NCBI GenBank assembly: GCA_002418835.1
Contig: DIEX01000011.1
Coordinates: 40,435 to 104,434 of the forward strand
Length of the DNA: 64,000 bases
Reading direction: 5' to 3'
Source of the DNA: Spirochaetia bacterium UBA5763
GTDB taxonomy: Bacteria > Spirochaetota > UBA4802 > UBA5550
In this document: piece after piece, positions 3,829 through 63,906 of the stretch
Numbering within the stretch: the stretch's first letter is position 1
Layout: every line of letters starts with the position of its first letter
Position numbers and translations under genes: made by a program
Notes under the pieces: generated by a model
Seen by the model: only the letters and a program-made list of their open reading frames with translations
Databases searched by the model: none
Told to the model about the DNA's origin: nothing

Positions 3829-4725
3829 CTAATCCTTAAGCCTCGGATCAAGGACATCCCTGATCCCGTCACCCAGGAGGTTAAACCCGAGAACAACCAG
3901 AACTATTGCTATACCGGGGAATGTTACGATCCACCATGCATTGGAGACAAACTCACGGGCTGATGCAATCATAAGGCCCCACTCCGGTGTGGGGGGCTGC
4001 GCGCCGAGTCCCAGGAAGGAGAGTGCTGCTGATTCAATTATTGCGCTCCCCACGCCAAGGGTTGCCTGCACAATTATGGGAGCAAGACAGTTCGGAAGGA
4101 TTGACATGAACATAAGTTCCATGTTCCCCACACCGAGAGACCTCTCCGCTTCAACGTATTCAGCTTCTTTCTCGGCAAGAACAGAAGCCCTCATAATCCT
4201 TGTGTACTGCGGGAGACGGGCAATACCGATGGCAATCATGGCGTTAAGTAGAGTTGGGCCCAGAAGCGCCACAATAACAATGGTAAGGAGAATATACGGG
4301 AATGCCAGCATGATGTCAATTACCCTCATGGATATTCTGTCAAACCACCCGCCGTAGAAGCCGGAGATGAGCCCGATGAGAGATCCGAACACAAGGGATA
4401 TTGATACGGCAAAAAAACCTATAACAAGCGATATGCGGGAACCGTAGATAATACGTGAAAGGATGTCCCTGCCGAAATCATCTGTCCCCAGGATGTAGGG
4501 CCAGGAGAAGTAAGTCATTTTTCTCAGATCAATATTCTGAAGATAGGGATCAAAGGGCGCAACAACAGGCGCGAATACAGCAAGAAATACAAAAAATATG
4601 ATTATGTAAAGTCCGAACATGGCGGACCTGTTTTTCTTAAGGAGAAGCCAGTTCTCATACCAGATCGATTCAGCAGCGTTGTTCTCTGCATCATTACCGG
4701 CTTTAAATATCTTAATAGGATTCAT
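3829..4725 (-). CDS. oppC: Oligopeptide ABC transporter permease OppC
   Basis: 298 aa with multiple TM helices and a BPD-transporter (EAA-like) motif region. Sits between oppB and oppD. Confidence 0.85.
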   Translation of the reverse strand: MNPIKIFKAGNDAENNAAESIWYENWLLLKKNRSAMFGLYIIIFFVFLAVFAPVVAPFDPYLQNIDLRKMTYFSWPYILGTDDFGRDILSRIIYGSRISLVIGFFAVSISLVFGSLIGLISGFYGGWFDRISMRVIDIMLAFPYILLTIVIVALLGPTLLNAMIAIGIARLPQYTRIMRASVLAEKEAEYVEAERSLGVGNMELMFMSILPNCLAPIIVQATLGVGSAIIESAALSFLGLGAQPPTPEWGLMIASAREFVSNAWWIVTFPGIAIVLVVLGFNLLGDGIRDVLDPRLKD

Positions 4726-59607: not shown

Positions 59608-62436
59608 TTAAAAATCGTTCCTGGCAATAACTACAGATGAGTTAATCAGGCTTACCTTGTATTTTATGCCGCAGTAATCACGGTGTTCTTTAAGGAGAGA
59701 TTCCATTTCTGTGCGGGCTTTGAGTATTTTGTTTCTGATACGGGTGATTACGCTTCTCATATCCTTGCCGTACCACTTCATCTGGCTTTCATGCAGGTCG
59801 AGTTTCTCTTCAAGTTCTTTGATCTGCTTTGTGTAAGATTCTTTGATCTTTTCTATTTCAGGATCTATCTGTATATCAATATTTTCATTAAGGTCAAAAA
59901 GTCTGTCATTGATACGTTCCATGATCTTTACCCTGGCAGCATCGAAACAGCATGATACGTTACACCTCACATTCTCAATTGCACCATAATGTTCAGACAG
60001 AGGGATATTGTGCATAAAATCATGATCCATAAACTGCTCTTCAATTCTCTTAACTTCATACTCAGAAAGTACCGACCCCTTTTCAACAAGTACCGGAAAA
60101 AACTGATGTGTAACTGAAGCTGAAGTAAATTCGACAAGGTAGTTAAAAATCATTCCATCAAAAGGTGTATCGCTCTTCATGAAAATCACACCGGACTCAC
60201 CTCCGAAACAGTCGCTGTTGCAGTAATCGATGATCCTGTCAACTGTGCTGTGCCCGAAAGCCAGAAACTCAAGGCTTTCGTCCTCCAGCGCCCTCTCGCT
60301 GTCAAATGTGCCGTATCTGATCTGGGAGTCATCACCTGAACCGGAGAAGACCCTGTAAAGTCCCGCTCTGCTGTTTTTCTTTGAAATCAGACCCTGCGCA
60401 TAAGAATCCTCATCCATGAAATCACTTATAAATTTTTCAATCCGCCGGTTTGTGAAACTGCGATCTTTCAGGGTAACCTTGTAGTAGTCATCATAATTAA
60501 AATCCATACGCCCTGCCACAGTCAGTTCAGAAAGTTTTTCAAAGCTCTGCCGCGCGTTCTCTATTCTGTCAGAGAGCTCAGACTCAACATCCTTCTTCTT
60601 CTTTCTTCCGGTGGCAAGTTCCATGAAAAGTGTATTAAGATTAACCTCATCTTCAATCTGACCCAGCATAATGTCAGGTGTGCCTATGGACTCCTCAAAT
60701 ATCTTAAGCTTCTCAGTGAGTACTTCAAGTACACGCTCCGCCACAGTCCCCCGTGTAGAGAAGTTATATATATGCACATCATTGGGCTGTCCGAATCTGT
60801 GAATACGGCCGATCCTCTGTTCTATCTTCAGCGGTGACCACGGCAAATCATAATTTATGAGAATGTCGCAGAACTGCATATTGCGCCCCTCTCCGCCCGC
60901 CTCTGTCGCTATTATGATCTCCACTTCATTCTTGAATTTGAGTATTGCCTCCTCCTTCTCGTCCCTGTTCATTGAGCCGTTAAAAGCGACCCTGCTGAAT
61001 CCGGAAAGAATGTCCATGAGGTAATCCTGTGTAGTCCTGAACTGCGTGAAAATCAGAAACTTTTCGTGCCCCTTTTTCTTTAAATCTTTTATGAGCCTTA
61101 CAAGCTTTTCACCCTTTTTGTTCGATTCGATCTGCGATGCGAGATTAACAAGCCGGTCGATAGTGAGTATCTCCAGCCTCAGTTCATCAATTGTCTTTTT
61201 AACAGTGAGTTCCGCATTCTCATCAAGTTCTTCAAGCTCAGATAATGTTTCATTATCAAAGCATCCGGTATTGAATTCCACGTATGCATTATTCAGAGAC
61301 TCGGCTTTAACCAGAAGATCTTTCAGCCGCGCAGACCTGTTCCTCAGTGCAACTAACAGAGCGTATGACGAAGAATCCAGGAGTTTCTGGAAAACAGTCA
61401 TTACAAATCCCACGGCACGGTTCTCAGACTGAAGAGCGCGGTTAAACTCCTCTGCCACGTATTTAGTTGTCTCGTCATAGAGGAACCGCTCGTCATCATA
61501 GAGATCAAACCTGATGGTGCGGGCATGGCGTTTTGTAAATCCTCCGACCTCGTTCTTGGTACGGCGGATTACAACCTGGTCCAGTTTTCTTTTAAGTTCA
61601 GAGAGGTCTGCTCCGTCAAGACAGAACTGGTTGTAGAATGACTGGTACGGCCCAAGTATATTTTTATCAACGAGTGCAATGAGATAGTAAAGTTCTTCAA
61701 GCTTTCCGCGGAAAGGGGTCGCCGAAAGAAGGAGGAGCGACTTTGTCCTGACCGCCACCTGCTCCGCCATACTGTATGCCAGTGTTGAACTGTTGGCGTC
61801 TCTCCTGAGCCTGTGTGCCTCATCAAAAATAACAAAGTCCCATGAGCAGTGAAGCAGATCCTCCTGGAAGTCCTTCCCCTTAATAAAGTCAAGAGAACAG
61901 ATCAGACGATCGTATACCTTCCAGGGATTCCCCCCTTCACCGGCAATCTGCGAAGCCTTCTTCAGAAGCTTCCTGTCCATGATTATAAATTTCTCGTTGA
62001 ATTTGCTCTCCATCTCATTCTGCCACTGGAAAAGCAGCGACGCAGGACAGATGATTATTATCCTTTTATAATTCTGCCTGTAGATCATCTCCTTGATCAC
62101 AAGACCCGCTTCAATAGTTTTACCAAGCCCCACCTCATCAGCAATGAGAAATCTCTGCTTGAATGAATTTACAATCCTGTGTGTGCTCTCCACCTGATGC
62201 GCTAAAATCCGGGTCCTGGAATTTGATAAAGAGAGTATTTTATTGTATGCATATGCAAGTTTTAATATAAATGACTCTGCTTTAAGTATAAACCTCCTGC
62301 CATGCGGCAACGGAGAGCTCTCGAAAAGTTCTCTGATGCGCCCCTCATTTTGTATGATCACCTCACCCGCCGGAATATTTTCATCCGGTTGATAAGTAAA
62401 GAGATCTGGCAGGATTAAATCCGCTTCAGTATTCAT
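59608..62436 (-). CDS. SNF2-family ATPase, RapA/HepA-like (RNA polymerase-associated remodeller-like)
   Basis: 942 aa. Motif I LIADEVGLGKTIEAG, DEAH-box (IFDEAHRL), helicase-C (LPWSPLKIEQRIGRIHRFGQ), and a ~330 aa C-terminal domain of unknown type. Confidence 0.75.
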   Translation of the reverse strand: MNTEADLILPDLFTYQPDENIPAGEVIIQNEGRIRELFESSPLPHGRRFILKAESFILKLAYAYNKILSLSNSRTRILAHQVESTHRIVNSFKQRFLIADEVGLGKTIEAGLVIKEMIYRQNYKRIIIICPASLLFQWQNEMESKFNEKFIIMDRKLLKKASQIAGEGGNPWKVYDRLICSLDFIKGKDFQEDLLHCSWDFVIFDEAHRLRRDANSSTLAYSMAEQVAVRTKSLLLLSATPFRGKLEELYYLIALVDKNILGPYQSFYNQFCLDGADLSELKRKLDQVVIRRTKNEVGGFTKRHARTIRFDLYDDERFLYDETTKYVAEEFNRALQSENRAVGFVMTVFQKLLDSSSYALLVALRNRSARLKDLLVKAESLNNAYVEFNTGCFDNETLSELEELDENAELTVKKTIDELRLEILTIDRLVNLASQIESNKKGEKLVRLIKDLKKKGHEKFLIFTQFRTTQDYLMDILSGFSRVAFNGSMNRDEKEEAILKFKNEVEIIIATEAGGEGRNMQFCDILINYDLPWSPLKIEQRIGRIHRFGQPNDVHIYNFSTRGTVAERVLEVLTEKLKIFEESIGTPDIMLGQIEDEVNLNTLFMELATGRKKKKDVESELSDRIENARQSFEKLSELTVAGRMDFNYDDYYKVTLKDRSFTNRRIEKFISDFMDEDSYAQGLISKKNSRAGLYRVFSGSGDDSQIRYGTFDSERALEDESLEFLAFGHSTVDRIIDYCNSDCFGGESGVIFMKSDTPFDGMIFNYLVEFTSASVTHQFFPVLVEKGSVLSEYEVKRIEEQFMDHDFMHNIPLSEHYGAIENVRCNVSCCFDAARVKIMERINDRLFDLNENIDIQIDPEIEKIKESYTKQIKELEEKLDLHESQMKWYGKDMRSVITRIRNKILKARTEMESLLKEHRDYCGIKYKVSLINSSVVIARNDF

Positions 62437-62540
62437 AGTTCAGAAGTATTAGAAATTGTCCCTGGAGGTTTTTCAGATGCGACATAATAGAACATATACA
62501 GGTTATGGGCAAGTATTTTTTTATGGGGGGGCTGGGTTGG

Positions 62541-62672
62541 GCTCTGACCCCGGTTTCCTTTTCTAATTTTCTAATGTCTGCCATATCTGTAAAAAACAAA
62601 ACATCGGCTCTGACCCTCCGTACCATAAAATGCTCATATTCCAAAAAAAAATCAAAATAATGCTCTGACCCC
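62541..62672 (+). repeat. Three direct copies of the 11-12-mer GCTCTGACCCC (62541, 62607, 62662) upstream of the transposase gene
   Basis: Seen directly. A fourth copy in inverse orientation (GGGGTCAGAGC) lies at 63350-63360. Confidence 0.6.
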
Positions 62673-62747
62673 AAAAAAAATTCAAAAATTTGAACGCCAG
62701 AATCGTATTAATAGCAGGAAGAACAAAAACTATATACGGAGAACCAA

Positions 62748-63338
62748 ATGCCACGACCTTTAAGAACAATCGCCCAGGGGGTAACTTATCATTGCTACAC
62801 CAGATGTCACGGAAAAAGAGATCTGCTCAAAAGCAGATACGGAAGGCGACATTTTATAGAAGCTGTTCAAATGTGCCAGGGAAAATATGTATTTGAACTT
62901 ATTGCCGCTGAAACTGTTGCAAATCATATACATCTTCTTATCAAAACCGTGGAGGATGAAGAAACAATCTCCCGGATAATGCAGTACATTAAGGCAAGAA
63001 TTGCCGAGAAATATAACAGGGCAACAGGTGAAACCGGTACTTTCTGGAATGAACGTTTCGGATCAACAATAATCGAAGAATCAGATAATCCCGAACAGTA
63101 CCTCCTATGGCTTTTATGGTATATAGGCTACAATCCTGTACGGAAAGGGCTGTCTCATGATCCCCGCAAGAATGAGATCGGTTTTATAAACTGTTATCTT
63201 GACGAAAACTTTAATTCACAAATAAAATTTACTCTACATGAATATTTTTACAATCTCGGGAACAGTTTCAGTATCCGTGTTAAAAGATTTCTGGAATATG
63301 AAGAAGCCTATCTGAAAAGGCTCGCTTTGTGGGTATAA
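62748..63338 (+). CDS. tnpA: IS200-like / REP-associated tyrosine transposase (Y1 HUH family)
   Basis: 196 aa. HUH motif NHIHLLI. Overall IS200-like arrangement (YHCYTRCH...FWNERFGSTII). GGAG RBS. A canonical catalytic Tyr is not obvious by eye. Confidence 0.65.
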   Translation: MPRPLRTIAQGVTYHCYTRCHGKRDLLKSRYGRRHFIEAVQMCQGKYVFELIAAETVANHIHLLIKTVEDEETISRIMQYIKARIAEKYNRATGETGTFWNERFGSTIIEESDNPEQYLLWLLWYIGYNPVRKGLSHDPRKNEIGFINCYLDENFNSQIKFTLHEYFYNLGNSFSIRVKRFLEYEEAYLKRLALWV

Positions 63339-63349
63339 GGATACGGTAT

Positions 63350-63360
63350 GGGGTCAGAGC
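63350..63360 (-). repeat. Inverted copy (GGGGTCAGAGC) of the GCTCTGACCCC repeat, downstream of the transposase
   Basis: Exact reverse complement of the upstream 11-mer. Confidence 0.6.
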
Positions 63361-63383
63361 CTGATTTTTCTCCTGCATAAAAA

Positions 63384-63399
63384 CCCCTGTTTCCAGGGG
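63384..63399 (-). terminator. Putative terminator of bfr
   Basis: CCCCTG-TTTC-CAGGGG hairpin followed on the minus strand by TTTTTAT. The 6 bp stem is weak. Confidence 0.4.
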
Positions 63400-63435
63400 C
63401 CTTTATGGGCTAAAAATTTAAAACAGGATTCACTC

Positions 63436-63906
63436 CTATTCTTTTACCTGTGTTGTAAGGAATATCTGGATCCCCATCTGTTCAATCTGATCCTTAATCT
63501 CCTCCAGTTTGTCAATATGAGCATCTTCATCCAGAAGAATACGATCCAGCATATCCTTGGTGGCGTTGTCACCGACCTCTGCAGCAAGTTTGATTGCATC
63601 GTTGTATGCTTTTATTGCGCCCTCTTCAGCATTTATATCGTTTGTCACCTGTTTAGTTACATCGGCTCCGATATTAATCTTATTAAGAGTCGTTACAACA
63701 GGAGTCCCTCCGAGGAAGAGAATTCTCCCGATTAACTGCTCAGCATGTTTCATTTCGTCAATTGCTCTCTTCTCAAACCCCTCATGGAGTTTAACATAAC
63801 CCCAGTCAGCACACATCTCAGAGTGAACCATGTACTGGTTTATTGCTGTCAGCTCATCCGCAAGCAGATAGTTCAGCATATCAATTAACTTCTGATTACC
63901 TTTCAT
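63436..63906 (-). CDS. bfr: Bacterioferritin
   Basis: 156 aa. N-terminus MKGNQKLIDMLNYLLADELTAINQY and ferroxidase ligands (E..ExxH x2) typical of Bfr. AGGAG RBS. Confidence 0.85.
   Translation of the reverse strand: MKGNQKLIDMLNYLLADELTAINQYMVHSEMCADWGYVKLHEGFEKRAIDEMKHAEQLIGRILFLGGTPVVTTLNKINIGADVTKQVTNDINAEEGAIKAYNDAIKLAAEVGDNATKDMLDRILLDEDAHIDKLEEIKDQIEQMGIQIFLTTQVKE

Follow-up and report, generated by a model that had tools for sequence, protein, structure and literature searches.

The window analysed here, a stretch of 64,000 nucleotides from contig DIEX01000011.1 of Spirochaetia bacterium UBA5763, carries towards its right-hand end a gene for a Y1 HUH transposase accompanied by four copies of a short motif. 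We interpret this locus, with a probability of about 0.68, as a partnership of the kind formed by repetitive extragenic palindromic (REP) sequences and REP-associated tyrosine transposases (RAYTs), in which a short repeat, here non-palindromic, stands in opposite orientations on the two sides of a RAYT-like gene, and the gene is represented by several old, vertically inherited paralogues per genome. Judged by where the motif stands in related loci, the 11-mers belong with the transposase gene family and are not incidental to it.

Position of the motif in the window and at homologous loci

The 11-mer GCTCTGACCCC occurs exactly at 62541-62551 and 62662-62672. The first-pass annotation of the window had counted three direct copies upstream of the gene, and all three can be located, although the one at 62607-62617 reads GCTCTGACCCT and matches the 11-mer at 10 of 11 positions. 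The exact inverted copy that it had reported past the stop codon is indeed there: the reverse complement of GCTCTGACCCC occupies 63350-63360, with 11 bases between it and the TAA stop (63336-63338). When extended by one base, the two outer copies (62540-62551 and 63350-63361) make up a perfect 12/12 inverted repeat, GGCTCTGACCCC. Near the copies we also find the G7 run (62525-62531) and the A homopolymers (A8 and A9) described before, and the leaders of copies 2 and 3 are themselves repeated with 73% identity (repeat D2, 62591-62616 versus 62646-71). With at most one mismatch allowed, these four copies are the only motif matches in the window, and all of them lie within 820 nt; shuffled controls gave a mean of 0.86 matches and reached four in one of 100 shuffles. 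A tblastn search of the 64-kb window detected neither another copy of the gene nor a fragment of it, and an Rfam scan of 62300-63500 returned nothing meaningful.

The stronger case against chance is comparative, because the core of the motif recurs at matching positions in most homologous loci. When one genome per species was scanned, 110 relatives were obtained, of which we kept 80, representing about 31 metagenome-assembled genomes (MAGs) of Spirochaetota/Leptospirales with no more than seven loci per MAG; homologous or neighbour loci are labelled below with L-numbers and the window with W. For the counts of positions relative to genes, the core GCTCTGACCC was scored with up to one mismatch. 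It is found in forward orientation between -125 and -55 from the ATG in 66 of the 75 loci with enough upstream sequence (median -82, compared with -86 in the window), and an inverted copy lies at most 100 nt past the stop in 64 of 81 loci, with a median distance of 11 nt that is the same as in the window. The number of forward copies upstream of the gene varies from 0 to 6 per locus.

An A-run usually stands before the proximal copy, and a T-run, an ACGTAT(T/A)AAT box and a GGAG ribosome-binding site come after it. The box is found again in most homologous loci, and the conserved region containing it, downstream of the proximal copy, would most simply be the promoter region of the gene. A generic sigma-70 promoter scan passed over the TTCAAA...TATTAAT stretch of the window because its spacer is 19 nt, and the "terminators" called at 62534 by the promoter/terminator scan amount to weak pairing of G with C around motif copy 1.

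In some clades an inverted-plus-direct pair upstream replaces the usual layout. The arrangement extends to rather distant relatives: L166/L167, with a protein 41% identical, have the motif twice in direct orientation upstream and once inverted, 8 nt past the stop, and relatives at 31-36% identity carry variant motifs, exemplified by CCTCTGACAC followed by a T-run in L171 (2440-2500) and by an upstream inverted pair, GGGTCAGTGAC...GCGACTGACC, in L174 (1-150). The variants in L171 and L174 hint at co-variation of the protein and its site.

In L013, L016, L017, L020, L021 (around 3890-3935) and many other loci, the proximal motif has A7-8 upstream and T7-9 downstream. By analogy with the nick sites of HUH Rep proteins, such A/T runs could form, in single-stranded DNA (ssDNA), a stem with the motif in its loop. 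This layout is not universal, since in the window and in L001 the proximal motif stands between two A8 runs.

The gene and its motif copies as an inserted unit

The gene order SNF2 helicase, transposase, bacterioferritin is common to the window, L001, L002/L085 and L012/L086. The transposases of these loci are 94%, 88% and 79% identical to that of the window, respectively, and the SNF2 and bacterioferritin proteins 87-97% identical where measured (L085 and L086). At these occupied orthologous loci the flank is kept as far as ...GCAAGTATTTTTTTA; past it the motif copies alone persist, in numbers of 3, 3, 3 and 2, and the spacers between them are unalignable. In L092, a metagenome locus, the SNF2-bacterioferritin spacer measures 227 nt, contains neither the gene nor the motif, and goes directly from the conserved flank to the terminator hairpin of the bacterioferritin gene. 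In the window, the conserved flank (gacataat...caag[tc]attttttta) stops at about 62523 and the bacterioferritin terminator hairpin restarts at about 63375; the segment from approximately 62524 to 63374 is therefore an insertion. A comparison with a syntenic locus lacking the insertion, proposed in the first-pass annotation as a check, thus sets the approximate ends of the element, and the suggestion made there that the 11-mers mark a variant element end is supported in a broader form: they are tied to the gene and stand at the ends of the inserted segment. As far as the aligned loci tell, the window locus is an insertion of about 0.85 kb that is old at its site and belongs to a kind occasionally copied.

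Such copying is documented by paralogues within genomes. L005 and L006 are 98.7% identical over 841 nt, from -244, a stretch including four motif copies, to 3 nt past the stop, and with a dS of 0.008 they were copied very recently. For L017 and L021 the shared block is 705 nt long and 94.5% identical; it begins about 17 nt ahead of the proximal motif and ends immediately after the stop. The copied unit is a block of 0.7-0.85 kb that starts just outside a forward motif copy. There are at least 3-7 paralogues per MAG, the MAGs being incomplete, and for most pairs within a genome the protein identity is 64-90%; a single pair reaches 99.8% at the nucleotide level, a count to be read with the proviso that MAG assemblies may collapse identical copies. 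Syntenic retention across genomes is seen for W/L001/L002/L012, L009/L015/L019 and L038/L045.

Folding of both ends on both strands revealed no end hairpins beyond those of shuffled controls (z from -0.5 to +1.1 on the left), the sole exception being the terminator of the flank. With no end hairpins and a non-palindromic motif logo, the arrangement fits neither a classical IS200/IS605 element (IS, insertion sequence) nor a palindromic REP, just as the first-pass annotation had maintained.

The SNF2-bacterioferritin spacer (window 62437-63435) is a hot spot of insertion, the same junction, after caag[ct]aatttttt, being used in other cases as well. In other lineages, L094/L095 (3960-4522) contain an unrelated insert resembling a miniature inverted-repeat transposable element (MITE), with terminal inverted repeats of about 25 nt (tggtagcagtttaattttagggg...), and L090/L091 (3969-5843) have an open reading frame (ORF) of 1.6 kb at the SNF2-bacterioferritin junction.

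The motif as a dispersed repeat

The logo of 471 copies has a sharp core, a-(G/T)-G-CTCTGACC-C-(C/T), of 10-13 nt, with uninformative flanks and no internal palindrome; the consensus of the family motif can be written as (A)(G/T)GCTCTGACCC(C/T), 10-12 nt long. In 655 kb of sequence (the window plus the loci) the 10-mer has 459 copies against about 1.2 expected, and 220 of these fall outside the zone from -450 to +200 of family genes, where chance would place about one. Some of the distant copies are singles; others form direct arrays whose spacers are unrelated, a small number of true tandem arrays, or inverted pairs for which hairpins of 10-20 bp are possible. Among copies more than 500 nt from a gene, 65% are located in the 16% of sequence outside ORFs of at least 120 aa. 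The density of the motif amounts to 4.6 per kb just upstream of the genes and 2.2 per kb just downstream, and farther out it is 0.5-0.9 per kb at 0.5-1.5 kb and 0.1-0.2 per kb at 3.5-4 kb. At loci chosen by their bacterioferritin gene, and hence not selected for the transposase, the motif is present in the transposase-carrying close relatives alone, with no copy in about 39 kb of such loci from the next-closest lineage and one copy in 317 kb from more distant lineages. The outcome that would have spoken against a special arrangement, namely an 11-mer common across the genome and unrelated to the gene, is thus realized in its first half only: the motif is common in related genomes, but it is linked to the gene family.

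Slippage does not account for the direct arrays, given that only 7 of the 18 arrays found in the loci with Tandem Repeats Finder (TRF) contain the motif and that neighbouring copies mostly have unrelated spacers. An iteron-type array, also considered in the first-pass annotation, is rejected as well: upstream copies number 0-6, their spacings range from 15 to 150 nt, and the histogram of spacings has no fixed period. Tandem arrays with the motif in the unit occur in L041 (2270-2478, 11 x 19 nt, the largest), L040 (2544-2663, 5 x 24 nt), L019 (848-1019, 2.4 x 71 nt, next to a masked run of N) and L070 (221-269, 2.6 x 19 nt).

About 1.7 kb past the end of the window, an inverted pair, GGGTCAGAGCC-N17-GGGCTCTGACCC, is situated between convergent lyase and methyltransferase genes (L081 12323-12360), with orthologous pairs at L001 6100-6137 and L002 6324-6374. 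It is a conserved hairpin, either terminator-like or resembling a REPIN (a hairpin-forming pair of REPs). The motif is also encountered in frame near the 5' end of the ORF for the beta-eliminating lyase (ATGGGGTCAGAGCT; L081 11427-11436, L001 5208, L002 5428), and this occurrence, kept in three genomes, looks like a coding coincidence and not an element. A literature search with the motif string returned unrelated primer sequences alone, and we found no account of the motif or the architecture of the family in the searchable literature.

The transposase

By sequence criteria the gene probably encodes an apparently intact RAYT-like enzyme, as opposed to a degenerate IS200. Residues 12-112 match Pfam Y1_Tnp (E=6.9e-12), which bears out the initial assignment to IS200/RAYT-like Y1 HUH transposases, as does the fold: for the AlphaFold (AF2) model, with a predicted local distance difference test score (pLDDT) of 81.5, the top match in the Protein Data Bank (PDB) is 4er8_A, i.e. 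E. coli TnpA-REP bound to a REP hairpin (E=1.9e-6, template modelling (TM) score 0.65), followed by the TnpA proteins of IS608 and ISDra2. A PDB sequence search with the single transposase sequence yielded no match, and a search with the family profile gave a marginal IS200 match (2f4f, E=0.4) together with spurious designed repeat proteins.

The HIHLLI motif corresponds to residues 60-65. An hhalign alignment with E. coli K-12 RayT pairs NHIHLLI with EHMHCIW, FWNERF with IWQPRF and WYIGYNPVRKG with DYIYINPVKHG, and so places H60-I-H62 opposite H59-M-H61, Y125 opposite Y115 and N129 opposite N119; the active site of E. coli TnpA-REP consists of H59/H61, Y115 and N119 (PMC3479197). The codons for these residues in the window are at 62925-62933 (H60/H62), 63120-63122 (Y125) and 63132-63134 (N129), and all four residues are invariant in 24 homologues at 69-88% identity. 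Y125 lies within the invariant YIGYNPV, in a catalytic-tyrosine helix that spans residues 115-132 and includes WLLWYIGYNPVRKG. The tyrosine previously thought to be missing had been sought in the wrong segment, FWNERFGSTII: FWNERFGS is a conserved strand ahead of helix alpha-D, and of the alignments, that to Pfam, recommended before, gave the Y1_Tnp match, and that with E. coli RayT located the catalytic residue as Y125 in YIGYNPV, opposite Y115. The associated suspicion of an inactive copy is refuted by the invariance of H60/H62, Y125 and N129 and by the ratios of nonsynonymous to synonymous substitution rates (dN/dS), which are 0.01-0.09 in 17 pairs of orthologues and paralogues (an 18th pair is saturated). 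Going by these ratios, the gene is under strong purifying selection.

A C-terminal extension, approximately residues 140-196, is conserved as well. At 50% identity the sub-family comprises 27 clusters with E <= 1e-30 within a superfamily of more than 5000 clusters, and automatic pipelines already tag its members as "RayT" or "transposase". Plasmid and phage collections contain no close relative, the best match being less than 35% identical. One metagenome contig (L083 1-995, compared with window 61750-62747) has an identical transposase downstream, and its upstream gene calls are a 228-aa ORF cut by the contig end and a 66-aa ORF, not one SNF2 ORF; the N-terminal part of the helicase may be frameshifted there or may be an assembly variant. 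The features of the locus are compiled in table 1.

Table 1. Coordinates of the transposase locus in the window.
Feature	Position	Strand	Remarks
Inserted unit (motif array, promoter region, gene, downstream motif)	62524..63374	+	Absent from the empty spacer of L092; ends ±~10 nt
Outermost upstream motif copy GGCTCTGACCCC	62540..62551	+	Left boundary copy; G-rich stretch before it
Second upstream motif copy GGCTCTGACCCT	62606..62617	+	Final base different; A-rich leader resembling that of copy 3
Promoter-proximal motif copy TGCTCTGACCCC	62661..62672	+	86 nt 5' of the ATG, the family-typical position
Promoter-like stretch TTCAAA ... CGTATTAAT	62681..62712	+	From family comparison; putative function
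Likely ribosome-binding site GGAG	62738-62741		
Y1 HUH transposase gene, RAYT-like (COG1943)	62748..63338	+	196 aa
Inverted motif copy GGCTCTGACCCC	63350..63361	-	Right boundary copy, 11 nt past the stop
Hairpin CCCCTG-TTTC-CAGGGG, terminator-like	63384..63399		Flank, not element; between the convergent transposase and bacterioferritin genes; equivalent in L092

Possible mechanism and alternative explanations

If the system works along the lines known from REP/RAYT, the protein would recognize the motif base-specifically on ssDNA, much as E. coli TnpA-REP reads the GTAG tag, and would nick at or beside it by means of Y125 and a metal held by the HUH histidines. The nicked end might then be joined to another motif-adjacent 3'-OH, and the outcome would be a spread of the motif, above all a local one, with the gene unit itself moved now and then. 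The forward left and the inverted right copies may each act on a different strand, or they could pair in ssDNA and bring the ends together, as short inverted pairs do. The promoter-proximal copy may also permit autoregulation. We entertain as a tentative, rather doubtful extension that these proteins constitute a distinct class of Y1 HUH enzymes, one recognizing a linear non-palindromic single-stranded motif of 10-12 nt instead of a hairpin and seeding it mainly nearby, with many constrained, vertically inherited paralogues serving one shared population of motifs.

Several points weigh against a partnership of the REP/RAYT type. The link between protein and motif is one of position and comparison, and the motif, having neither a hairpin nor a GTAG/CGTC tag, is unlike every REP of known mechanism. 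The best-scoring NCBIfam model, REP_Tyr_transpos (NF047646), matches residues 6-140 with 62.3 bits, under its cut-off of 80. Sampling of all loci other than that of the window reached no farther than 4 kb from a family gene, and the motif counts thus describe gene neighbourhoods. The genome of the window is itself poor in dispersed copies: a further 62 kb contain none, and the 10 kb that follow contain a single inverted pair. The L092 lineage is diverged (its SNF2 protein is 74% identical), so the ends of the insertion are approximate. Finally, the spacer between the stop and the downstream motif varies in length and sequence between near-identical paralogues, and the right-hand copy may therefore be derived from the target and not carried by the element.

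This last point speaks for a different explanation, which we consider improbable, that the motif is a host sequence or is part of some other system (as an uptake-type sequence, a component of terminators or the site of another protein) and pre-existed in intergenic regions, the transposase unit inserting beside its copies and the flanking copies being remnants of the target. The spacer differs between paralogues that are 95-99.8% identical, the homology block of L006 stops inside the motif (between TAGGGG and TCAGAGCC), copies are met with at kilobase distances from the nearest family gene, frequently paired as hairpins where genes converge, and REPs are known as targets of other IS families. 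However, the forward proximal copy is inside the duplicated unit, at a fixed distance to the promoter and the ATG in 66 of 75 loci, the empty site of L092 lacks the motif, and motif density decays away from the genes; the altered motifs of distant relatives, moreover, correspond to what co-evolution of a protein and its site would produce. Domestication of the genes is another conceivable, if rather unlikely, explanation: the protein would no longer move DNA and would act as a sequence-specific binding or nicking factor, regulating its own gene or nearby ones, with the motifs as operators. Such a role would agree with the very strong purifying selection, the syntenic retention across genomes, the promoter-like region adjoining the proximal copy and the lack of close relatives in plasmid or phage collections, and auto-inhibition with very low activity is also on record for E. 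coli TnpA-REP (PMC3479197). Pure DNA binding, on the other hand, would not need the HUH histidines, the tyrosine and the metal-ligand asparagine, which are all invariant; within genomes, copies of the gene unit have arisen at new sites that are not syntenic, in the case of L005/L006 (dS 0.008) very recently; and the number and position of motifs turn over between orthologous loci.

That the locus is an ordinary IS200/IS605 insertion sequence, with its true ends at subterminal hairpins elsewhere and the 11-mers incidental, appears highly improbable. The Pfam Y1_Tnp match and the likeness of the fold to IS608 and ISDra2 TnpA would suit such an element. Against it, the only stable hairpin belongs to the flank, the position of the 11-mer is conserved over about 80 loci, the NCBIfam IS200 model (NF033573, transpos_IS200) scores 31.3 bits under a cut-off of 55, and copies within a genome are mostly 64-90% identical instead of near-identical.

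Implications

Long-term persistence of a transposase together with its short repeats inside bacterial lineages is exemplified chiefly by REP/RAYT. Descriptions of such systems come almost exclusively from Proteobacteria, where the repeats form hairpins and the genes are single-copy. Under our preferred interpretation as a RAYT-like gene with its repeat, the same partnership now appears in uncultured Spirochaetota, with a short non-palindromic motif shared by several old paralogues and with copies clustered around the genes. Should the protein indeed recognize a linear motif, the recognition repertoire of Y1 HUH enzymes, which also serve as sequence-specific ssDNA-tagging tools, would widen by a mode not yet described for RAYTs. 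Surveys based on 16-21-mers or other long k-mers, or on palindromes, would then under-count or overlook such systems. For annotation, the practical consequence is that the gene is probably to be treated as an intact RAYT-like enzyme and the 11-mers as going with it.

Comparison with known systems

The closest parallel is provided by the REP/REPIN-RAYT systems, i.e. E. coli RayT/TnpA-REP with its bacterial interspersed mosaic elements (BIMEs) and the Group 2/3 RAYTs of Pseudomonas. Both sides have a Y1 HUH enzyme with the HUH motif and Y-x-x-x-N-P-V, and the best structural match of the window protein is E. coli TnpA-REP. They further share a short repeat that stands on both sides of the gene in opposite orientations, has inverted pairs able to form hairpins, and is also dispersed in extragenic sequence (in the spirochaetes, as sampled within 4 kb of family genes), as well as vertical inheritance at fixed loci, strong purifying selection and the lack of close plasmid or phage relatives. 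The spirochaete repeat differs in being a sharp non-palindromic motif of 10-12 nt without conserved flanks, a hairpin or a GTAG/CGTC tag, in forming direct arrays of 1-6 copies upstream of the gene, and in the clustering of its copies around the genes. The known RAYT groups have 1.3-1.8 copies per replicon (PMC5581495), whereas the spirochaete MAGs have at least 3-7 diverged paralogues, all on one motif instead of one each. The window protein, besides falling under the NCBIfam RAYT cut-off, also has a longer C-terminal extension (196 aa in total versus 165 aa).

With the IS200/IS605 elements that encode TnpA only (IS200, and IS608 and ISDra2 with respect to TnpA), the family has in common the catalytic fold and residues, a compact single-gene unit of 0.7-0.85 kb and signs of occasional copying within genomes. 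In contrast to these elements, the spirochaete unit has a 12-nt inverted repeat at its ends and no subterminal hairpins on one strand, its copies, as assembled, are mostly old and diverged, and its motif is dispersed independently of the gene; to judge from these features, it is not a classical IS200/IS605 element. A more partial likeness is that to MITE-like derivatives and to uptake-type oligomers such as the DNA uptake sequence (DUS) pairs that serve as terminators in Neisseria: short inverted motif pairs between convergent genes occur in all of them, and some spirochaete pairs resemble two element ends joined without the gene (L063 7128-7163). Unlike in those systems, the spirochaete copies are mostly single or in direct arrays, not in end-to-end pairs, and they have a link of fixed position to a Y1 transposase gene that is foreign to uptake sequences.

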